This document shows positions 1 through 18,144 of a stretch of DNA of 18,144 nt, in pieces. Position numbers and translations under genes: made by a program. Numbering within the stretch: the stretch's first letter is position 1; each line of letters starts with the position of its first letter. The notes below the pieces were generated by a model. It searched no databases. It had not been told where the DNA came from and saw nothing but the letters and a program-made list of their open reading frames with translations. The DNA lies in assembly GCA_031367385.1 (NCBI GenBank), contig JANLPS010000452.1:1-18144 (forward strand). Direction: 5' to 3'. Origin of the DNA: Archangium sp. GTDB taxonomy: Bacteria; Myxococcota; Myxococcia; Myxococcales; Myxococcaceae.

Positions 1-81
1 CTCCGGTTGCCGCCGCGTGCCGATGCCACTCCGGCTCAGCTATTCAGCGCTCTTCGAAAGCGACTGATGACGCGGCGGTAA
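1..81 (+). CDS. possible 3' end of an upstream gene (partial)
   Basis: Frame 1 is open from the window edge (LRLPPRADATPAQLFSALRKRLMTRR) to TAA at 79-81; no recognisable motif. Confidence 0.25.
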   Translation, partial: LRLPPRADATPAQLFSALRKRLMTRR

Positions 82-295
82 CCGGGTCTCTCACGTGCCG
101 CAGATCGCGTCACCCTCGAGCCGATCCGCATCGCGTGGGTCTGAGCGACCTTCACGCCGTAGGGAAACCGGTCGTACCTCGACGCACACGTCTGCTCAGC
201 GCGGGTTGGTTCGAGAATGAGCGGGTTGCGCAGAAGAAGCGCTTCACGATCTTTCGAGATTTATGCAACTCGTCGTACTTACACGCCAAGCATCG

Positions 296-311
296 TGGCG
301 CGAGCCATGCT
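296..311 (+). promoter_or_regulatory. candidate sigma54 (-24/-12) promoter
   Basis: TGGCGCG-AGCC-ATGCT versus consensus TGGCACG-N4-TTGC(A/T), with exact GG-N10-GC spacing. Predicted +1 is about 322, just before ATG 324. Confidence 0.45.
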
Positions 312-323
312 CCACCGCAGCGA

Positions 324-1214
324 ATGAACAAACTGCTTCCTGCATTGGTAGTCCTGATCGGCTGCGGGCTCCCGAGCGAGCCGCAAACCGAAGCCTCGAA
401 GTCGCTGAGCCAAGAGTTGAGCGACGACAACGGCATGTCGGCCAATGGTTTCTCGGCCAACGGCATGTCTGCGAACGGCTTCTCGGCGAACGGGTTCTCA
501 GCGAACGGCTTCTCGGCCAATGGCATGTCGTACATCGCCGCCGACGGAGCCATCACTGCGCCCAGCGGCTCGAACTCCGCTTTCGCGACATGGTTCAACT
601 CGAACGTCGCCCAAAATGCAGCGTGGATGAAGTACGTCGTCAAGTGCGCGGTACCGCGCGGCGGCTCGGTGAGCTACGGCGGCTATACCTGGTACGGCTC
701 GGTAGGCGTCGCGCCCGGCTTCGTGACCGGCAACCCGACGGTCAGAGACCAAGAAGCGATGACGGCGTGTCTCATGGCGCACGTCAACGCCAATGGCAAT
801 TCGGTCGTCATCTCGCTGCTCAGCCCGAGTCTCGGCCTCACTTACGACACGGGGTACAACCAACCCGAGGGCGCCTTCTTCGGCAACATCTTCGCCCCGA
901 CCCGAACTGCGTACGCCTGCTCCCAGAGAATTGCGAAGCCCTCGTCGTGCCCGAGCGTGCCGGGTACCACCATCGAGTACGGCGATATCTCCAGCTACAA
1001 CCCCTCTGGTGGCACGGGGCGAAGCTGCGCCTCAACCAGTGGAGGCTGCACTGGCATGCTCTACGTCGGCACCTGTTCTTCCCGTTGCACCAGCTTCACT
1101 CCATGGGGGTCGTGCACCTACAACGGGCAAGTGTTTTCATCACCGATCACGTCGTACCAGCCGCCCGTCTCGACGACCGTCATTTGCGACACCTTTCGCT
1201 TCAAGTTCACGTGA
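324..1214 (+). CDS. Cys-rich secreted lipoprotein with NG(M/F)SA pentapeptide repeats (myxobacterial type, function unknown)
   Basis: ATG 324 gives a signal peptide with a lipobox-like Cys (MNKLLPALVVLIGC), then seven NGxS repeats, then YVVKCA...ACLMAHVN...EGAFFGNIF and a Cys-rich C-terminus. The track start at 135 adds an implausible leader. Confidence 0.8.
   Translation: MNKLLPALVVLIGCGLPSEPQTEASKSLSQELSDDNGMSANGFSANGMSANGFSANGFSANGFSANGMSYIAADGAITAPSGSNSAFATWFNSNVAQNAAWMKYVVKCAVPRGGSVSYGGYTWYGSVGVAPGFVTGNPTVRDQEAMTACLMAHVNANGNSVVISLLSPSLGLTYDTGYNQPEGAFFGNIFAPTRTAYACSQRIAKPSSCPSVPGTTIEYGDISSYNPSGGTGRSCASTSGGCTGMLYVGTCSSRCTSFTPWGSCTYNGQVFSSPITSYQPPVSTTVICDTFRFKFT
429..530 (+). repeat. 15-bp coding tandem repeat, 6 full copies plus 1 partial (AAYGGN-ATG/TTC-TCN-GCS)
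   Basis: AACGGCATGTCGGCC / AATGGTTTCTCGGCC / AACGGCATGTCTGCG / AACGGCTTCTCGGCG / AACGGGTTCTCAGCG / AACGGCTTCTCGGCC / AATGGCATGTCG; variation is synonymous except M/F. Confidence 0.95.
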
Positions 1215-8068: not shown

Positions 8069-9039
8069 CAGGTCAGAACGATTTTTCCGTAGTTTTGGTT
8101 GTCGGCCATGCGCCCGAGGCCTTTGGCGATGTCGCTCATCGGTAACACCGAGTCGATCACCGGAGTCAGCTGCCCACTCGCAAACGCCGGCATCAGCCGT
8201 GACTCGAGGGCCTGTGCGACCGCTATTTTCTCTTCGAGCGGTCGGCTGCGAAGCGCGGTGCCTTGAATTCGAAGGCGTTTTTGCAACACCACACCGAGTG
8301 GCAGCTCGACCGTTGCGCCCGCGACGAGGCCGACCAGCAGCAAGGTGCCCTTCGGGGCCAGCGAGCGCACCGATTCAGGCACGAAGTCGCCGCCGACGAG
8401 ATCGAGCACGAGGTCGACTCCGCGGCCGTCGGTGAGTGACTTGACCTGGTCTGCGAAGGTCGGGCCCGAGGTGAGAATCGCGTCTTTGCCAAGGCCGACC
8501 CGCTCGAGCTTGCTGGCGGTGCGCGCGGTGCCGATGACTCGGGCCCCGTAGAGCTTGGCGAGCTGAACGGCGGCGGTGCCGACTCCGCTGGCGACGGCGT
8601 GAACGAGCACCTGCGAGCCGACGGTCATGCCGCCTTGAGTCACGAGTGCGTCAAATGCCGTTGAAAATGCTTCGGGTATCGCCGCGGCGTGCTCGAGCGT
8701 GACGGAGGCAGGCACGCGAATCGCTTCTCGTTCATGGGTCACCAAGGTTTGAGCCCACGCGCCCCCGCCGACGAGCCCCATCACCCGGTCGCCGACCTTC
8801 CATCGGGTCACGCGAGCTCCAACCGAGGCGACTTCACCCGAATATTCAATGCCGGGGATGTCTTGCACGATGCCGGCGGGGGCAGGGTAGAGGCCGCGGG
8901 TCTGCAGCAGGTCGGCTCGATTGAGCGCCGTTGCCTTGACCGTGACGGTGATCTCGTCAGGGCCGGCAATTGGGGCCGTGGCGTCGTCGATTCGCAGACC
9001 CGCCGGACCAGTCAGCTCAACGGCTCGAACGGCTTTCAT
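8065..9039 (-). CDS. NAD(P)H-quinone oxidoreductase, PIG3/zeta-crystallin (MDR) family
   Basis: ALNRADLLQTRGLYP, PGIEYSG, VHAVASGVGTAA, GTALRSRP and GKIVL; start reassigned to MKAVRAV at 9039. Confidence 0.92.
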   Translation of the reverse strand: MKAVRAVELTGPAGLRIDDATAPIAGPDEITVTVKATALNRADLLQTRGLYPAPAGIVQDIPGIEYSGEVASVGARVTRWKVGDRVMGLVGGGAWAQTLVTHEREAIRVPASVTLEHAAAIPEAFSTAFDALVTQGGMTVGSQVLVHAVASGVGTAAVQLAKLYGARVIGTARTASKLERVGLGKDAILTSGPTFADQVKSLTDGRGVDLVLDLVGGDFVPESVRSLAPKGTLLLVGLVAGATVELPLGVVLQKRLRIQGTALRSRPLEEKIAVAQALESRLMPAFASGQLTPVIDSVLPMSDIAKGLGRMADNQNYGKIVLTW

Positions 9040-9137
9040 GATCGAAGCGAGTAACACACTCCGGTAACGCCAAGGGGCCCCCAAAACTCTGCGACTCGTT
9101 AACTCTCATGGTGAGCCTGTCGAACCACGAACCGCTC

Positions 9138-10553
9138 ATGCGGTATGACCCCCTCATGCACTTCATTCAACGGCGCGAGCGCTTGCTGGGCACCCTCGAA
9201 CGACCCGTGGTTCTCTTCGCGGGAGGCCTGCGAGGCCGCAACTACACCGCGAACCCGTACGCCTATCGCGCCGACAGCAACTTCCTCTATTTCTTCGAGC
9301 GCCCCGAGCCGGGCAGCGCCGCCCTCTTCGACCCTGCAGACAAATCGGTCACGCTCTTCCTCCCCGCGCGCTCGCTCGACGACGTGATCTGGCACGGTGA
9401 GCTCGAGTCTTTCGCCGCCGCCCAAAAGCGTCACGGAGTCACTGCAGTGCTCGATGTCGAGCAGCTCGAGACCCACCTGGCGAAGCTGGGTAAAGGCCGT
9501 CAACTTTCGGCACTCGCGGTGGCCGATCACAACGCGCTGTACCGGGCCCGGGCCATCACCGGTGAGGACCTCTCGTTCGACGACGACGCGCGCTACGGCC
9601 TCTGGGCGGTGATGAACGCCATCGCGCAATTGCGACTGATCAAAGGCCCCGAGGAGCTCGCTGAGATGCGAAAGACCGCGAAGATCACGCACGAAGCCCA
9701 CGTCGCGGCGATCAAAGCCTCGAAGCCCGGAGTCACCGAGCAGGCCCTCATGGGTCACGTCGAGGGCACTTTCGCGAAGTACGGCTGCGTGCCGGCTTAT
9801 CTGACGATCTTGAGCGTGCGCAGCGAGGTGCTGCACAACCACGCGCACGACAAAGTGTTGCAATCGGGCGACGTGATGCTGCTCGACGGCGGCGCCGAAG
9901 ATTCGACCACGGGCTACTGCAGCGACGTCACCCGCTGTTGGCCCGTCGGAGGCCCATTCACCGCCGAGGGCCGCGATGTGTACGACACCGTGCTCAAAGC
10001 GCAGGAAGCCAGCATCGCCGCGGTCAAACCCGGCGTGCGTTTTCGCGACTTGCACTTGCAATCAGCGAAGGTCATGGCCGAGGGCCTGGTCTCGATGGGC
10101 CTGCTCAAAGGCAACGTCGACTCGTTGGTCGAATCGGGCGCCCACGCCGTCTTCTTCCCCCACGGGCTCGGGCACCAAATCGGCCTCGACGTGCACGACA
10201 TGGAGTCCTTCGGCGACCGCGTTCACTACCCCAACGGGCGCACGCGCAGCGCCCAGTTCGGCACCAAGTACCTGCGAATGGATCTCGACCTCGCCGAGGG
10301 CATGACCTTCACCATCGAGCCGGGTGTGTATTTCGTGCCTGCCATCTTGCGCAGCCCAGAGATTCAGAAGCAGTTCAAAGGCCAGGTCGACTTCGAGAAG
10401 GCCGAGAAATTCTTGGCGATGAATCAAGGCCGAGGCTTCGGGGGCATTCGCATCGAAGACGACGTGCTCTGCACGAAGGCCGGTATCGAAGTGCTCACCG
10501 CCTCAATCCCGAAAAAACGCACTGAAATCGAATCGCTCGTCGGCACAGCGTGA
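9138..10553 (+). CDS. pepP: Xaa-Pro aminopeptidase (M24B, aminopeptidase P)
   Basis: N-terminal YRADSNFLY, then LLDGG, YCSDVTR, HGLGHQIGLDVHD, TIEPG and GIRIEDD metal ligands. Start uncertain (9108/9138/9156). Confidence 0.92.
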   Translation: MRYDPLMHFIQRRERLLGTLERPVVLFAGGLRGRNYTANPYAYRADSNFLYFFERPEPGSAALFDPADKSVTLFLPARSLDDVIWHGELESFAAAQKRHGVTAVLDVEQLETHLAKLGKGRQLSALAVADHNALYRARAITGEDLSFDDDARYGLWAVMNAIAQLRLIKGPEELAEMRKTAKITHEAHVAAIKASKPGVTEQALMGHVEGTFAKYGCVPAYLTILSVRSEVLHNHAHDKVLQSGDVMLLDGGAEDSTTGYCSDVTRCWPVGGPFTAEGRDVYDTVLKAQEASIAAVKPGVRFRDLHLQSAKVMAEGLVSMGLLKGNVDSLVESGAHAVFFPHGLGHQIGLDVHDMESFGDRVHYPNGRTRSAQFGTKYLRMDLDLAEGMTFTIEPGVYFVPAILRSPEIQKQFKGQVDFEKAEKFLAMNQGRGFGGIRIEDDVLCTKAGIEVLTASIPKKRTEIESLVGTA

Positions 10554-12570: not shown

Positions 12571-13826
12571 CGCCCGACGAGGGGCTGGCGTACTTCGCGT
12601 CGCTCCCGCCCTCGTCGATCAAGATGGGCCTCGACCGGGTGCAGGCCGCCCTCGCTCAATTGGGCAACCCCGAGCGCAGATACCCCGCGCTCCACGTGGC
12701 CGGCACCAACGGCAAGGGCTCGACCTGCGCCTTCGCTGCCTCGTGCTTATCGCAGCGATACCGGGTCGGTTTGTACACGTCGCCCCACCTGATTCGGGTG
12801 AATGAACGAATCAAGATCAACGGCGTCGACATCAGCGACGCGGTGCTGGGCCAACGCATCGCCGAGGTGCGCGCGCGGCTGCCCGACATCGATCTGACCT
12901 ACTTCGAGCTCGGCACCATCGTCGCGTTCTGGCACTTCGCTCAAGAAGGCGTGGCCATCGCGGTGCTCGAGACTGGGCTCGGAGGCCGCCTCGACGCGAC
13001 CACCGCGTGCGTGCCCAAAGTGACGGCAATCACTCCGATTTCGTACGATCACCAGGAGTACCTCGGCACGACCCTCACTGCCATCGCCGGTGAAAAGGCC
13101 GGCATCGCCAAGCCCGGAGTGCCGCTGGTCACCAGCCGTCAAAGCCCAGAGGCCGAGGCCGTCTTCGCGGCGCTCGAGGGCGTGCCGCGCATGCGCGAAG
13201 GCGTCGACTTCGAGGCCAAGAGCGAGCCCCGATTCTCGTACCGCGGCTTCGATCTGCGCATCAGCGGAGTGACCTTGCCGCTCCACGGCCCGCACCAGAC
13301 GCAGAACGCCGCGGTGGCGCTTGCCTGTCTCGAGTTGCTCGGCCGCGACGGTTTCCCCCTGCGTGACGAACAGATCAGACGAGGCCTCGAGCGCACCCAA
13401 TGGCCCGGCCGGCTCGAAGAGTTTCCCGGAGCTCCGCTCGTCGTGCTCGATGGCGCCCACAACCCGGGCGGGGTCGAGGCGCTGCTCCAAGCGATCGACA
13501 GCCTTTACACCAAGCGGCCCATTCACCTGGTCTTCGGAGTCTTCGCTGACAAAGATGCCGAGCCGATGATTCGCGCGCTCTTCGCCCGCGTGTCGGCGGT
13601 CACTTTGACGCCGATCGCGAACCCGAGGAGCCGGCCGCCAGAGCAGTATCTCGCGCTCGCGCAGTCACTCAACTCGAACGTACGTGTCGCCAGCGACGCC
13701 GCAACAGCGGTCAACGAGGCCAAGGCGCAGAGCCCCGCGAATGGAGTCGTGATCGTCGCAGGCTCGCTCTTTCTCGTGGGGCAGGTGCGCGCCGCGCTGC
13801 TCGAACGAGCTGCTATAACGCCTTGA
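12567..13826 (+). CDS. folC: folylpolyglutamate synthase / dihydrofolate synthase
   Basis: HVAGTNGKGST, YTSPHL, ETGLGGRLDAT, WPGRLE, LDGAHNP and GSLFLVG; GTG 12567 overlaps the accD stop; accD-folC is a conserved gene order. Confidence 0.96.
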   Translation: MTPDEGLAYFASLPPSSIKMGLDRVQAALAQLGNPERRYPALHVAGTNGKGSTCAFAASCLSQRYRVGLYTSPHLIRVNERIKINGVDISDAVLGQRIAEVRARLPDIDLTYFELGTIVAFWHFAQEGVAIAVLETGLGGRLDATTACVPKVTAITPISYDHQEYLGTTLTAIAGEKAGIAKPGVPLVTSRQSPEAEAVFAALEGVPRMREGVDFEAKSEPRFSYRGFDLRISGVTLPLHGPHQTQNAAVALACLELLGRDGFPLRDEQIRRGLERTQWPGRLEEFPGAPLVVLDGAHNPGGVEALLQAIDSLYTKRPIHLVFGVFADKDAEPMIRALFARVSAVTLTPIANPRSRPPEQYLALAQSLNSNVRVASDAATAVNEAKAQSPANGVVIVAGSLFLVGQVRAALLERAAITP

Positions 13827-14740
13827 TGCCAGTCAAAATGTCGAAGCGCGTGCGCCGTTTTCTCGACGATGCCCACACGCTCGCCGCGCTCCCGGTCGCC
13901 AAGAAATACCGGCCGCTGGTCGTCGACGAATACTCCTTCGACGCGCAATTGCTGACCATGAGCCGGTTGTACCGCGCCAGCCGCCAGTTCTACCGCGACC
14001 TGGGCGGCCGCTTCGCCGCGCGCATCTCCTGCGAGGCCCGCTCCCTCGACGGAGGCCTGTTCGCCGAGGAGATCGAGTTCGCTCCGGCCGAGACCGAGCT
14101 GCTCTGGTTCAAAGATCACCATGGCCAGGTGCACGATCTCGAGGCCGAGGTCAGCGGCCTGCTGCGGTTCAACGAGATCTCGCTCTTTCACGAGCAAAAT
14201 CATCGCGTCATCTGGCTGCTGCTACCCCCCGCACCCGATACCCAGGTCGATCTGAAGCGCTACTTGAACTTCGCCGAGAGCCTGGTGGTCGCGCTCGACA
14301 TCGCGCTCGCAGAAGCGACCGGTGCCCTGGCGGTGCCGTTTCAGCGAATGAACCTGCTCTACCGAAGGCCGGGCAAGAACACCTGGCACCGTCGCCCGAA
14401 GGCGGAGTACCGCAGGTACCTCACTGCGGTGGCCTACGCGACCTACTGCTTTCTCGGCCTGGTCGAGAACAAAGACGTCATCAAAGCCGTCGACTACGCC
14501 TTGCCGAATCAGAAGGAGATCAACCGAGACGCCGTTCGCTGCAGCCTCGGGTTGAGCGAACGGTTTGCGCTGGTGACCAACCCCACCTGGCAGAACAGCT
14601 TCGGCGAATTCGCGCTCTCGCGGCTCGAGGTCATTCAGGCAAAATCGAAAGAACCCAAGTTGGTTTTGCCCGCCGACCCGCTCGATTTCGAAGCCGAATT
14701 TTCGCTCGCCCAGAGAGTCTTCAAACACTACGGTCTGTGA
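13826..14740 (+). CDS. hypothetical protein with HExxH motif (possible metallopeptidase or metalloenzyme)
   Basis: SLFHEQNHRV (HEQNH at 14189-14203) and a downstream NFAES Glu. ATG overlaps the folC stop and the gene ends 3 nt before ycaO. Confidence 0.75.
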   Translation: MPVKMSKRVRRFLDDAHTLAALPVAKKYRPLVVDEYSFDAQLLTMSRLYRASRQFYRDLGGRFAARISCEARSLDGGLFAEEIEFAPAETELLWFKDHHGQVHDLEAEVSGLLRFNEISLFHEQNHRVIWLLLPPAPDTQVDLKRYLNFAESLVVALDIALAEATGALAVPFQRMNLLYRRPGKNTWHRRPKAEYRRYLTAVAYATYCFLGLVENKDVIKAVDYALPNQKEINRDAVRCSLGLSERFALVTNPTWQNSFGEFALSRLEVIQAKSKEPKLVLPADPLDFEAEFSLAQRVFKHYGL

Positions 14741-14743
14741 CTC

Positions 14744-16048
14744 ATGACCGAAGAGCTCGGGCGACAATATTCTCCACAAGCGCTCGCGAGCGCGCTGAAC
14801 AACAAAGAGAAGATCGTCTATTCGCTCAACGGCAATCGCGCCGCCAACGGCCGCACGTTCTTGAAGAAGATCGAGAAGCTGTGCCCGCTCGTCGGCGTGC
14901 GACGGGTCGGCGACATCTCGCATCTCACCGGCGCTCCGTACCCGGTGTTTCAAAGCTGCAGGCCCAACCTGTTGCTGCACACGGAGTACGGTCAGAACTC
15001 CGGAGCCCTGGGCAAGGGCACCACTGAAACCCAAGCCAAGATCTCCTGCATCATGGAAGCGATCGAGGGCTACTGCTCGGAGCCTCGCAGCCCCCACCTC
15101 ATTCGCGCCTCGTTTCGATACCTGGCCCAGCAGTATGCGGTGCTCGACCCGCGCAAACTGCTGACCCAATTCGACGTCGACCCGCCCTCGCTCGACGAGC
15201 CTTTGATGTGGACTCCGGCATATTCGGTGAAGACCGGCAGCGCCATCTGGGTGCCCGCGGAGACCGTCTATTGCCCCTTCGTCAACAAGCCGTATCGAAC
15301 CCGTTCGCTGTTCATCTCGGCCTCGAACGGGTTGTCGTCAGGCTCGACCTACCTCGAGGCCGTCGTGCACGGGTTGTACGAGCTGATCGAGCGCTACTAC
15401 CTCGCCAAGATGGAGCAGGGCGGGGTGACCGTCGAGGCGATGTTCGAAGATCAGGTCAAAGAGCGCTCGGTGCAGGCGTACCTGCGGGTGATGGGCGACG
15501 AAGATCAAGTTCAGCTCTACGGCATCGAGCTGCCCGGCGTTCGCAACCTGCCGATGATCATGTGCTGCCTCGTCGCCGACAACACCCTGCATCAAGGCTG
15601 GGGCTGCTCGCCGTCGATCGAAATGTCAGTCAGCCGCGCGTTCAGCGAAGCGATGCAATCTCGCGCCACGGTGATCAGCGGGAGCCGCGAGAATATGCCG
15701 TCGATTGAATCGGGCGCTCGGGCCGCCGAAGAGAGCATCTTCGGCAAAGCCACCCAGCCCGAGGAGCGCACCTTGAGCCTCAAGGCCCTCCGCGCTCGGG
15801 CGATCGACAAGCGCTTCACCTCGCTCGACCAGGAGTACCAATTCGTCTTGGCCTGGCTGCGAGCGCGCTCGCTCGACAACGTGATCATCGCCAATTTGAC
15901 TCGGCAGGGCATCGACGTCCCGGTGGTCAAAGTGCTCATCCCCGAGTTGGCGGTGCCCAGCCACTTTCGAACCCGCACCAAGACGCCCTACCAACCCCAA
16001 ACCTCGACCGAGCGGCAGTTTCGCACCATTCAGGTGGCCGCCGAATGA
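14744..16048 (+). CDS. ycaO: YcaO-family protein, TfuA-associated type
   Basis: GKGTTETQAKISCIMEAIE, SNGLSSGSTYLEAVVHGLYELIER, RAFSEAMQSRATVISGSRE and VPVVKVLIPEL; no terminal PxP motif. Confidence 0.92.
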   Translation: MTEELGRQYSPQALASALNNKEKIVYSLNGNRAANGRTFLKKIEKLCPLVGVRRVGDISHLTGAPYPVFQSCRPNLLLHTEYGQNSGALGKGTTETQAKISCIMEAIEGYCSEPRSPHLIRASFRYLAQQYAVLDPRKLLTQFDVDPPSLDEPLMWTPAYSVKTGSAIWVPAETVYCPFVNKPYRTRSLFISASNGLSSGSTYLEAVVHGLYELIERYYLAKMEQGGVTVEAMFEDQVKERSVQAYLRVMGDEDQVQLYGIELPGVRNLPMIMCCLVADNTLHQGWGCSPSIEMSVSRAFSEAMQSRATVISGSRENMPSIESGARAAEESIFGKATQPEERTLSLKALRARAIDKRFTSLDQEYQFVLAWLRARSLDNVIIANLTRQGIDVPVVKVLIPELAVPSHFRTRTKTPYQPQTSTERQFRTIQVAAE

Positions 16049-16719
16049 GAGTGAAGATCTACTGCGGCCCCGAGCTCGCCGAGTCGGTGCGCACCGTGCT
16101 GCCCGAGGCTGAGCTGGCTCCGCCGATCAAGCGCGGCGACGTACATCGCGACCTCGCCGCGGCTGTGAACGTGGTCGGCATCGTCGATGGTGACGTGCTC
16201 GAAGCGGTCTCGGTCGCGTCAACTGAGATTCTCGACGCGATCAGGGTCGGCGTGCGGGTCTTCGGCGCCGGCGGCCTCGGAGCGATTCGCGCCGCCGAGC
16301 TCGATCGACTCGGCATGACCGGCTGCGGCCTCGTCTATGATCACGTCAGGGCCAACCCATACTTTCGCGACGACGCGCTCGGCCTCGTGCACTTCAGCGG
16401 CCCCGATGCGTCGAGCACGATTTCACTCGTCGAGCTCGAGCTCACGATTGAGCGCCTGGTTGCGTCGAAGAAGCTCGCCGTGGGCGCCGCTCGAGGCCTG
16501 CTCCGGCGCTTTCGTGACCTGCATTTTTCGCAGCGCACCTTTGACCGTCTGCACGCCGACCTCGAATCGCGCAGCCGTGCGGCCGAGCTCGACGCACTCG
16601 CCCAGGTTCGCAAGCACCACGTGAGCCAGAAGGGTCGCGATGCGGTCGCGATGGCCAAGCTGATTCGCGCTGAGCTCGCACTCGTCGCGAAGCACAACCG
16701 GCAGCTCAACGGCGCCTGA
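16045..16719 (+). CDS. tfuA: TfuA-like protein (catalytic motifs divergent)
   Basis: IYCGP, PPIKRGD, VGIVDG, EILDAI..GVRVFGA..LGAIRAAEL, GMTGCGLVY, DD, LHFSQRT and SQKGRDA; ATGA overlap with ycaO. Confidence 0.9.
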   Translation: MRVKIYCGPELAESVRTVLPEAELAPPIKRGDVHRDLAAAVNVVGIVDGDVLEAVSVASTEILDAIRVGVRVFGAGGLGAIRAAELDRLGMTGCGLVYDHVRANPYFRDDALGLVHFSGPDASSTISLVELELTIERLVASKKLAVGAARGLLRRFRDLHFSQRTFDRLHADLESRSRAAELDALAQVRKHHVSQKGRDAVAMAKLIRAELALVAKHNRQLNGA

Positions 16720-16761
16720 AAATGAAGAAGCGGTCGGCCTCGAATCACGAGACCGACCGCT
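16719..16761 (-). terminator. intrinsic terminator downstream of the precursor gene (between convergent tfuA and precursor)
   Basis: Minus strand reads AGCGGTCGGTCTCG-TGATT-CGAGGCCGACCGCT: a 14-bp stem with one G-U pair, followed by TCTTCATTTT. Confidence 0.75.
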
Positions 16762-16787
16762 GCAAAACAGCACCGAGAGCGCCTGAA

Positions 16788-16892
16788 TTAGAACGCTGCG
16801 TGGCAGCTGGGCTTGCCGCCGACGACCTTCTTCAGGTCGGCATCGGCCAGGTTCTTGAGCTTCAGGGTGGGCTTCACTTTTTTGATCGACAT
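16788..16892 (-). CDS. putative RiPP precursor peptide, double-glycine leader (34 aa)
   Basis: Hand translation gives MSIKKVKPTLKLKNLADADLKKVVGG-KPSCHAAF*. GAAAGG SD lies 8 nt upstream, third positions are nearly all G/C, and a terminator follows. Too short for the ORF track. Confidence 0.85.
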   Translation of the reverse strand: MSIKKVKPTLKLKNLADADLKKVVGGKPSCHAAF

Positions 16893-17032
16893 GTGGGTTG
16901 CCTTTCGACTGCTGGTTGTGGCGAAGAGAGATGCTACCGCCGAGCACATTGTCGTACAGGCCGAAGTGAAGTTGCTTGTGGTGAAATTAAATACATTCCA
17001 CGAGCGATATCGGGCGCTTAACCTCGTGCTTC

Positions 17033-18144
17033 ATGCCTCGTTCTGTGCAGGTTGGAAGCGTCGTTTCGTACAACTACAGCCTTCGAAACCAGGCCGGGCG
17101 CCTGATCGAGGACTGTGTCGGCTGGCCCTTTCAATACGTTCACACCAAGCGGCCGAAGGTCATCGCCGGCGTGGTCAAGGCGCTGCTCGGTCACCACGCC
17201 GGAGACACGCTCCACTTCGCCGTACCTCCTGAGGAGGCCTACGGCGCGTATGACCCCGAGGCGGTGCTCACCGTGCCGCGCAAGCCGGGCACCAAGACCA
17301 CCCTCGCGATCGGAGACGACGTGGCCTTCAACGACGGCCAGCGCGACGTGACTGCCCGGGTTCGAAAAATCACGCCCCGCGCCATCGAGCTCGATCTCAA
17401 TGACTCACTGGCCGGGCAAACGCTGCACTTCGACATCGACATCGTCTCGATTCGCGAAGCCACGCCGCGCGAAATGCGCACTGGCCAGGTGTTCGACCCC
17501 TTCGACGGCGCTGAACGTCGCTCCACCGAGGCGCTCGACCCGCGGCGCTTTCCTTTCGATTTGTTCAACGACCCGGCGCTCTACAAGAAGATGGGGCGCG
17601 CCATCGAGTCGGTGTTGCCGTACTCGATGTTCCCTCCGTACCCGTGGGGGCAGCGACTGTACGGGCGCTTGTTCGAGCAGCGATGCAAGGGGCTCGAGGG
17701 CGACGTGATCGAGCTCGGAGTCGGCCGCGGAGGCATGTCGCTGTACCTGGCTCAGCTCGCGCAAAAAGCTGGCAAGCGGGTCTTCAGCTACGACAGTTAT
17801 GAGGGGTTGCCCGAGGCTGATTCGAGCAAGGACAACCCCGGCTTTCGCGCCGGCGATTATCGGGGCTCCAGCGAAAAAGAAGATCTGTTGGCCCGGTTCG
17901 AGGCCGCCGCGAAGAAGCTCAAGGTCAGCAAAACGATCACCCCGGTCAAGGGCTTCTTCGAGCACACCGTGCCCAAGATGGCGAAGACGCAGCGCTTCTG
18001 TTTCGCGCACCTCGACAGCGACCTCTACGACTCGGTCTTCTTTTCGCTCGAGCAGATCTACGACCGGGTCGCCGATGGCGCCGTGATCGTCATCGACGAC
18101 TATTTTCACCACGCCCAGGGCCCGGCACGCGCAGTCTCCGATTT
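17033..18144 (+). CDS. SlyD/FKBP-type PPIase domain fused to a TylF/MycF/NovP-type O-methyltransferase (3' partial)
   Basis: Hand translation is stop-free to the window end. FKBP part: VVSYNYSLRNQAGRLIED, VPPEEAYGAYD, DLNDSLAGQTLHFDIDIVSIREAT. TylF part: GDVIELGVGRGG, YDSYEGLP, VKGFFEHT, FAHLDSDLYDS, VIDDY. Confidence 0.88.
   Translation, partial: MPRSVQVGSVVSYNYSLRNQAGRLIEDCVGWPFQYVHTKRPKVIAGVVKALLGHHAGDTLHFAVPPEEAYGAYDPEAVLTVPRKPGTKTTLAIGDDVAFNDGQRDVTARVRKITPRAIELDLNDSLAGQTLHFDIDIVSIREATPREMRTGQVFDPFDGAERRSTEALDPRRFPFDLFNDPALYKKMGRAIESVLPYSMFPPYPWGQRLYGRLFEQRCKGLEGDVIELGVGRGGMSLYLAQLAQKAGKRVFSYDSYEGLPEADSSKDNPGFRAGDYRGSSEKEDLLARFEAAAKKLKVSKTITPVKGFFEHTVPKMAKTQRFCFAHLDSDLYDSVFFSLEQIYDRVADGAVIVIDDYFHHAQGPARAVSD

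Follow-up and report, generated by a model that had tools for sequence, protein, structure and literature searches.

The 34-codon open reading frame on the minus strand at 16788..16892 (ATG at 16892, TAA at 16790-16788; translation MSIKKVKPTLKLKNLADADLKKVVGGKPSCHAAF) is a real small gene, and very probably it encodes the precursor of the product of the gene cluster in which it lies. It is located in a stretch of 18,144 nt, hereafter called the window, which is the entire contig C215 in the assembly of its source genome (G000; 7.97 Mb, 562 contigs). Judging from the gene content, it is likely that the peptide is translated as the precursor of a RiPP and would then undergo thioamidation by YcaO and TfuA, methylation, and cleavage after a Gly-Gly pair. 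The role as a precursor is considered likely because the gene is kept beside a YcaO-TfuA pair and two methyltransferases.

The precursor gene is convergent with an operon of three plus-strand genes and divergent from a fourth gene on the same strand. The operon starts with a gene for a 304-aa protein containing an HExxH motif (13826..14740), in which the segments FHEQNHR and NFAES are invariant and which matches no family model. It continues with a YcaO of the TfuA-associated type (434 aa, 14744..16048; PF02624, E = 3e-59) and with TfuA (224 aa, 16045..16719; PF07812, E = 1e-22), the gene of which has a 4-nt overlap with the stop of the YcaO gene. The divergent gene (17033..18144) codes for a fusion of a SlyD-like FKBP domain with a TylF-type methyltransferase; the contig ends within this gene, the remainder of which is located on another one, C451. 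Genes for AccD and a FolC-like protein, recognized by Pfam and NCBIfam models, are also located on the plus strand of the window. The cluster continues beyond the window, because the end of C215 overlaps C451: it matches the reverse-complemented end of that contig over approximately 72 nt with one mismatch, and the part of the FKBP-methyltransferase that C215 lacks, its C-terminus, is encoded at this end of C451 (66% identical to residues 381-512 of the homolog from the metagenome locus L128). The join of the two contigs rests on this overlap of about 72 nt, the two gene halves, and synteny. Beyond the fusion gene, C451 carries in this order the gene of a 447-aa methyltransferase of the Trm112 type, a convergent second precursor gene, and grpE-like DNA. 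Six contigs, of which the longest has 51,509 bases, are on record for both precursor proteins, and this fits a single locus.

The original prediction had suggested that homologous ycaO-tfuA loci be searched for an ORF with a GG leader, and such an ORF is indeed a conserved companion of these genes in a second genome of the same genus (G001) and in L128. In G001, a convergent gene for MKKTTKKKPTMKPVVKLTGDDLKAITGGVADGKPSCH (...GGVADGKPSCH) comes after those for YcaO (55% identity) and TfuA. L128 encodes the HExxH protein, YcaO (64%), TfuA, the convergent MKKTQKALAKKKPVLKIKKISEADLKKVVGGWEDKPSCHICVEPGR (...GGWEDKPSCHICVEPGR), the FKBP-TylF fusion (60%) and the Trm112-type methyltransferase, which is the gene order deduced for G000. 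We infer a fourth locus, consisting of a precursor (P0013, ..GGSKPSCHVQE), a YcaO (P0140, 61%), an HExxH protein (P0023) and a methyltransferase (P0207), solely from the record of all four proteins on a contig of 13,407 bases. Thus, the precursor was found in three of three readable loci whose YcaO is at least 55% identical (the window, G001 and L128), and no KPSCH-type peptide was present in the loci with a YcaO of at most 47% identity (L129-L133). The cluster of G001 lacks the FKBP-methyltransferase and has other genes in its place. The original prediction did not cover the HExxH protein, either of the methyltransferases, the second copy of the precursor, or the paralogs described below.

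Thioamidation would be the most likely reaction of the YcaO/TfuA pair. The best models for both proteins are those of the pair that thioamidates McrA glycine, although both scores are far under the equivalog cut-offs (TIGR03266 for YcaO, 157.7 bits with a cut-off of 365; NF033432 for TfuA, E = 7.5e-37, 126.8 bits with a cut-off of 235.2). The best solved relatives of the YcaO are 6CI7 and 6PE3, two thioamide-forming archaeal YcaOs, with which the S-x3-E-x2-E, E..E..ER and R..E motifs align. The residues of these motifs presumably constitute the ATP/Mg-binding site, and S101, E105, E108, E205, E213, E216, R217, R298 and E302 are invariant across 10 homologs. A quick tree of 61 YcaO homologs places the YcaOs encoded on four KPSCH contigs in one clade with an SH-aLRT support of 100. 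Alternatively, the YcaO might modify the precursor as a cyclodehydratase or amidine former, yielding an azoline at Ser29/Cys30 or an amidine without any thioamidation. The adjacency of Ser and Cys within the invariant KPSCH would suit such a reaction, as would the match of the YcaO to the SagD model of the TOMM group (E = 1.4e-26), but this match of 93.3 bits stays below the cut-off of 219, and among the 23 window ORFs scanned there was neither an E1-like/Ocin-ThiF partner protein nor an FMN dehydrogenase; in azol(in)e RiPPs, YcaO has such a partner, either as a C protein or as an RRE fused to it, and often also the dehydrogenase. The stand-alone YcaOs of bottromycin and trifolitoxin biosynthesis are believed to be active without a C protein (PMC4603692). 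TfuA, however, is translationally coupled to YcaO and was kept in all three loci read, and the models and structures that score top are those of the thioamide type. Thioamidation is preferred for these reasons, namely the coupled TfuA, the best-scoring models and structures, and the lack of a cyclodehydratase partner and dehydrogenase; the azoline or amidine chemistry that had initially been proposed for the core appears less likely than thioamidation and, taken by itself, rather improbable.

The two methyltransferases of the cluster are unusual. The FKBP part of the fusion protein matches SlyD (PRK10737) over 150 residues with E = 5e-20, which is under the cut-off, and its methyltransferase part belongs to the TylF/Methyltransf_24 type. 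SlyD is a prolyl isomerase and chaperone. The SlyD-like character of the domain and the invariance of Pro in every class of core suggest that it may hold the invariant Lys-Pro segment of the peptide. For the 447-aa methyltransferase encoded on C451, the matching models are Methyltransf_11 and, in part, CARME. The protein starts with a CxxC...CxxC motif; in the ortholog of G001, this motif matches Trm112p with E = 3e-4. The C-terminal 100 residues of the enzyme weakly match Pfam PqqD (E = 0.0033, 18.2 bits, cut-off 23.4), the type of winged-helix domain that is found on modifying enzymes of RRE-dependent RiPPs. These 100 residues were modeled by AF2 as strands followed by three helices with a pLDDT of 76-95, within a full model that is poor (mean pLDDT 63.7). 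On the basis of these models, the C-terminal domain would be the part of the cluster most likely to bind the leader, as a candidate; a complex prediction of this domain with the peptide (score 0.02, mark 0.32) weighs neither way. When compared by BLASTP, the tail of the methyltransferase and the C-terminus of a JmjC protein encoded next to a paralogous peptide in G001 were not significantly similar (E = 0.17). The invariant His of the core is a candidate target of the Trm112-type enzyme, because the latter matches carnosine N-methyltransferase in part (E about 1e-7). Among 5.8 billion proteins, this methyltransferase family has five cluster representatives at E <= 1e-10: the protein of G000 itself, those on contigs of 7,628, 13,407 and 11,122 bases (the last from G001), and P0206, a 75% relative on a contig of 1,755 bases. 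Three of the five sit on contigs whose lengths match those of other KPSCH loci. With so few representatives, found mostly at KPSCH loci, the Trm112-type methyltransferase is therefore a near-exclusive marker of these loci.

The double-glycine leader is real as a feature of the sequence. It comprises residues 1-26 (16815..16892, minus strand), is rich in lysine and ends with Gly-Gly; K7, P8, L15, K21, G25 and G26 are invariant in six members of the family. The consensus of GG leaders combines a pair of glycines at positions -2/-1 with an acidic residue at -8 and hydrophobic ones at -12, -7 and -4. Read directly, the segment LADADLKKVVGG has L, D, L, V, G and G at -12, -8, -7, -4, -2 and -1. The precursor thus fits this consensus, and G25/G26 are kept in all six aligned members; a database relative (P0010) has Ala-Gly in place of Gly-Gly. 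Among the NCBIfam and Pfam models of GG-leader and bacteriocin families, no curated family was reached above its cut-off, the matches to bactofencin A (E = 0.0033, 17.7 bits, cut-off 35) and BLP_Lacticasei (E = 0.04, 13.9 bits, cut-off 40) being below. One relative of the precursor carries the name 'bacteriocin-like protein' in its source. The core, KPSCHAAF, extends over residues 27-34 (16791..16814, minus strand) with the KPSCH part at 16800-16814. It had been predicted as a unit of eight residues, of which KPSCH is conserved and the AAF tail is variable: KPSCH is invariant in five of five members of this class, and the residues after His are AAF, AAA, none (G001), ICVEPGR or VQE. The spacer between Gly-Gly and the core measures 0, 1, 1, 3 or 4 residues in these members and thus varies by whole-codon indels.

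A leader of this kind had been taken as a sign of processing by C39 peptidase-containing transporters. The leader type is borne out by the alignment, whereas a C39 exporter or any other transporter is absent from the cluster (the window, contig C2 of G001, and L128). Two complete genes of the C39+ABC_membrane+ABC_tran architecture are located elsewhere in G000, on contigs C365 and C277, with OEP or HlyD neighbors, and a regular-expression scan beside them revealed no convincing GG-type ORF. As no exporter is encoded in the cluster itself, cleavage at Gly-Gly by these two is putative. These observations also bear on the possibility that the peptide is an ordinary bacteriocin or pheromone with a GG leader, which is exported by a C39 transporter and is no substrate of YcaO and TfuA. 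Its adjacency to their genes would then merely reflect co-inheritance, and the two enzymes would act on another peptide or protein. The exporters without an adjacent GG-type ORF would be consistent with such a role, and so would the weak leader matches to bacteriocin models and the occurrence of the same leader type in peptides of quite different clusters; a core of 5-9 residues would be very short for an unmodified bacteriocin, however, and the four nearest orthologs of the YcaO all co-occur with a KPSCH peptide. Moreover, no other conserved small ORF was found at the KPSCH loci, and it is a methyltransferase family almost confined to these loci that carries the PqqD-like tail. Hence we regard an unmodified peptide as improbable and the precursor role as the better explanation.

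The precursor is a member of a small family of peptides. G000 contains two paralogs, which were detected with E-values of 3.5e-9 and 0.56 in a single-peptide search and of 8e-22 and 2e-18 in a profile search. A six-frame regular-expression scan of this genome retrieved exactly three copies, including the precursor itself. The second precursor, on C451, is MKNTKQKPVIKLKNLSDTDLKKVTGGWKPSCHAAA (GGWKPSCHAAA). When a profile of six peptides was searched against 1.84 billion representatives, it obtained 16 matches, 13 of them small family peptides, with E-values down to 3e-17. Behind one common leader type, these peptides show four classes of core: KPSCH (five members), GWPSH (three members, in addition to the own copy of G000 on contig C413), IVGL(P/V)P (three members) and HGMPSIF (one member). 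Pro (P28) is invariant in all of them. In a sample of the taxonomic family, the profile matched two of 201 genomes (G000 and G001), and in a sample of the phylum it matched seven of 401, namely the same two, four from a single further genus, and one weak case. In this further genus, a long Cys-rich core stands behind the leader, 5' of a LanB-like ORF that by eye resembles a lanthipeptide dehydratase. Paralogs with the same leader adjoin JmjC/cupin genes and have no YcaO gene beside them; the leader is therefore not specific for YcaO. Its presence in clusters with different enzymes argues instead for a common role in export and cleavage. The JmjC neighbors of two paralogs are dissimilar to each other. 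The GWPSH and LPPP cores of paralogs contain no Cys, which does not bear on the chemistry of YcaO because their loci also lack a YcaO gene. Altogether, the KPSCH family is extremely rare in the data at present, being represented by four to five loci in Myxococcaceae-type MAGs or in sediment and other metagenomes.

Codon composition also marks the precursor frame as coding. Its GC content at codon positions 1/2/3 is 0.53/0.35/0.88, and the flanking genes have a GC3 of 0.81-0.83. In the in-frame upstream extension to an ATG at 16949 the values are 0.42/0.68/0.63, and plus-strand ORFs that overlap the precursor have a GC3 of 0.46-0.56. The difference between the frame and its upstream extension implies that the coding frame consists of the 34 codons from 16892. 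A 53-aa form of the protein that starts at 16949 (P0003) is present in the NCBI, ENA and Logan collections; this form is probably mis-started, and its existence makes it doubtful that the gene can be called unannotated. Whatever its product does, the precursor illustrates well how the start of a small, hidden gene can be misplaced by gene callers. The Shine-Dalgarno-like GAAAGG (16901..16906, minus strand) is located 8 nt 5' of the ATG, and the other five family members have purine-rich elements at the equivalent upstream place. Downstream of the stop codon, an intrinsic-terminator-like hairpin (16729..16761, minus strand) has 14 pairs, 10 of them G-C, and is followed by the T-rich TCTTCATTTT. 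Its predicted stability is -36.3 kcal/mol (z = -4.4; 0 of 200 shuffles equally stable). Both elements had been proposed earlier as signs of an independent small gene and were confirmed in place. A -10 element (TAGCAT) that had been proposed along with them found no counterpart in a sigma-70 promoter scan of 16500-17200, which returned zero promoter-like sites. No families were detected in an Rfam scan of the window or in a Pfam scan of the 34-aa peptide. Counts of synonymous versus non-synonymous codons were uninformative because of the strong codon bias. The G+C content of the window (64.2%) and its wealth of spurious ORFs (109 with 60 aa or more in 18 kb) might lend some credit to the assumption that the frame arose by chance in the G+C-rich DNA that separates its convergent and divergent neighbors. 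This assumption is highly improbable in view of the protein-level conservation in two genomes and a metagenome despite varied spacers and tails, the profile E-values, which reach 3e-17 among 1.84 billion proteins, and the codon-position GC, SD-like site and terminator. The stretch is represented in six DNA sequencing runs from two studies of sediment and freshwater sediment metagenomes, and zero RNA runs with it were found. Contigs aligned over 16000-18144 contain zero variants, and two of them (X1 and X3) extend beyond the end of the window.

The HExxH protein presents a different picture. FHEQNHR and NFAES do not vary across 89 sequences of its family, a pattern that resembles gluzincin metallopeptidases. 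The AF2 model is confident (pLDDT 92.5) and all-helical. Foldseek found zero matches in the PDB at E <= 0.001, and a profile of the family had no relevant match among PDB sequences; the neighbors in the ESM Atlas belong to zincin-type families (score 0.83). As a lead, the models point to a putative zincin-like metallopeptidase, and a function as a leader or tail peptidase would be a guess. In the sample of the taxonomic family, the HExxH profile matched two of 201 genomes, which are the same two as for the peptide profile (G000 and G001). In total, 311 homologs were found at E <= 0.001; those in many Bdellovibrio are about 50% identical, and the family is near-universal in this genus. Among the best 80 HExxH genome loci, 79 have no YcaO or TfuA gene within 6 kb, and the only peptide of the precursor family found at these loci is that of G001. 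Among five complete Bdellovibrio-type genomes, TfuA was found in none, and the peptide profile obtained two matches with E-values of 0.4-0.7. The role of the HExxH protein in the cluster is uncertain, because its Bdellovibrio relatives mostly occur without YcaO and TfuA. It seems that the protein has a separate life elsewhere and was recruited into the KPSCH cluster. A candidate assignment of the HExxH gene to an accD-folC housekeeping operon was rejected, as folC is a neighbor in none of the 80 loci and, within the taxonomic family, the gene occurs solely together with the peptide. In one Bdellovibrio-type genome, it is located between a Smr-domain gene and ORFs of no known function.

Based on these data, a sequence of events can be proposed for the cluster. 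The leader would present the short core to the enzymes, and YcaO together with TfuA would replace at least one backbone carbonyl oxygen in or next to KPSCH by sulfur, which would create a thioamide. The two methyltransferases could add methyl groups, for which His, Cys, Lys and the termini are candidates, while the SlyD-like FKBP domain may hold the Lys-Pro segment. The modified peptide would then be cut after Gly-Gly, either by one of the C39-ABC exporters encoded elsewhere or by the HExxH protein of the cluster, and the variable tail after His might be dispensable or trimmed. The expected product would be a thioamidated and methylated peptide of 5-9 residues, which could serve as a metal binder, signal, or antibiotic. 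A more far-reaching interpretation, which we put forward tentatively and consider doubtful as a whole, is that the cluster represents a new RiPP class with the invariant KPSCH core as its hallmark. Thioamidation by YcaO/TfuA and the action of two unusual methyltransferases would build a ligand set of thioamide, thiol(ate) and imidazole, and the product might function as a copper or zinc binder or as a signal. Substrate capture would be achieved by the SlyD-type domain fused to the methyltransferase and not by a classical leader-binding domain on the side of YcaO, and the leader would be a portable export tag of Myxococcaceae that is common to JmjC- and LanB-type clusters. If the product indeed binds metal or signals in these social myxobacteria, it would be a new minimal scaffold.

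To our knowledge, few thioamide-containing ribosomal peptides have been characterized, and most bacterial YcaO-TfuA pairs have no known substrate. Here, a candidate substrate of such a pair is pinned by synteny, and five invariant residues delimit the segment that would be modified. With seven genes in about 7 kb, the full set is compact enough for heterologous expression and in vitro reconstitution to be feasible. RiPP-type clusters with YcaO and TfuA are of a known kind (PMC6511847, PMC8120280). With the thioamidated RiPPs of such clusters (thioamitides such as thiostreptamide S4 and thioholgamide, thiovarsolins, and the families from the RiPPER survey of 2019 and the global mining survey of 2021) the KPSCH cluster shares the adjacent YcaO and TfuA genes, a short precursor, a conserved leader, and a small core. 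The tailoring of thioamitides also includes AviCys-forming enzymes. A study of this group further describes the combination of thioamidation with His methylation (TsaH/TsaI, TsaG, TsaJ) and names a His methyltransferase of pfam06325 and an oxygenase of pfam05721 as families involved (PMC8153245). These two families and the AviCys-forming ones are absent among the ORFs of the window and of G001. The methyltransferases of the KPSCH cluster, one of the TylF/Methyltransf_24-FKBP type and one of the Methyltransf_11/CARME-like type that has a PqqD-like tail in addition to a Trm112 zinc ribbon, differ from the thioamitide family, as do the core of 5-9 residues with its invariant KPSCH and the host, a Myxococcaceae MAG. 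A possible methylation of His would nevertheless parallel that described for thioamitides in the same study, albeit with an enzyme of a different family (PMC8153245). Thus, the cluster is neither of the thioamitide nor of the azoline RiPP type, and it reaches no curated bacteriocin family.

Peptides with GG leaders that are cut by C39 peptidases, such as class II bacteriocins, competence pheromones and some lanthipeptides, have a similar leader pattern, and C39-ABC exporters are encoded in the genome; in contrast to these peptides, the KPSCH precursor has no exporter in its cluster and a core much shorter than that of a typical unmodified bacteriocin. Trifolitoxin, after which TfuA was named, has a short C-terminal Cys-containing core behind a Lys-rich leader. 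Its likeness to the KPSCH system, a ribosomal peptide combined with tfuA, is drawn from its description and not from sequence. It is a ribosomal peptide antibiotic of Rhizobium, the production of which involves tfuA (PMC4603692). The main text of a mining survey from 2021, as far as considered here and apart from its supplements, does not mention Myxococc-, double-glycine or FKBP (PMC8120280). Literature searches on KPSCH, on TfuA with YcaO in myxobacteria, and on myxobacterial thioamide RiPPs, which did not extend to the supplements of mining surveys, retrieved neither this precursor nor this gene combination among the papers listed. The one on thioamidated biarylitides deals with an engineered hybrid. 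The assembly of the HExxH family, a SlyD-like FKBP-TylF fusion and a methyltransferase that is Trm112/CARME-like and has a PqqD-like tail was likewise not found in the literature searched.

The window's end overlaps another contig of the same assembly: about 72 nt (18073-18144) recur, in reverse complement and with one mismatch, at the end of C451 (locus L043, about 8787-8858), and the two halves of the gene for the FKBP-TylF methyltransferase, one at each contig end, join up. Because the ends overlap and the halves fit, the biosynthetic cluster is divided between two contigs and includes a second precursor gene, located at 6919-7023 of C451 and carrying the sequence GGWKPSCHAAA.

The leader of the KPSCH precursor also precedes other cores. 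In the Archangium assembly, a paralog on the minus strand of contig C413 (L003 1492-1599) has the core GGIGWPSHAAA, and the same-genus genome G001 encodes two more, likewise on minus strands, with the cores GGIVGLPPPYAAN (contig C423, L039 1495-1608) and GGHGMPSIF (contig C472, L041 1492-1590). Genes for Cupin_8/JmjC-type oxygenases, without a YcaO, adjoin the paralogs on C413 and C423. The leader of the KPSCH-type peptides looks like a portable tag that serves different modifying enzymes. In four genomes of another genus of the phylum (L153-L155 and L157), peptides with the same leader type consist of MKKPTKKLTLSKDTLRALNETELKQVAGG and a Cys-rich core of roughly 35 residues, and lie immediately 5' of an ORF that, judged by eye, resembles a lanthipeptide dehydratase. 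On contig C2 of G001, a small plus-strand ORF (L042 6960-7283) directly precedes a LanC-like gene, 1 kb away from the KPSCH precursor; it contains Gly-Gly motifs, and its tail is rich in Cys and Thr (...EVGGVKGGVRCQTNGTCAPGSW). In this genome the KPSCH precursor itself shares 4 nt with the stop of a 242-aa ORF that lies upstream and has no family assignment.

The HExxH protein encoded by the first gene of the ycaO-tfuA operon (window 13826-14740, 304 aa) belongs to a family that has no Pfam or NCBIfam model and extends at about 50% identity across Bdellovibrio and Pseudobdellovibrio (79 of 80 loci kept). Its AF2 model is all-helical and confident (pLDDT 92.5), and a Foldseek search of the PDB with this model returned no match. 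The protein may represent an undescribed zincin-like fold.

The metagenome locus L129 has a YcaO-TfuA of 47% identity, and its ycaO is preceded (3-765, plus strand) by a ThiF-like fragment, a 99-aa ThiS-like ORF with a Gly-Gly end, and a 30-aa ORF. This set may supply a sulfur carrier for thioamidation. In the window, a plus-strand gene of the Xaa-Pro aminopeptidase type (9108-10553; AMP_N and Peptidase_M24 domains) lies 3 kb upstream of the biosynthetic cluster and probably is a housekeeping gene. A Lys-Pro N-terminus is the type of substrate that would suit such an enzyme, and an M24 gene also adjoins the distant HExxH locus L122.
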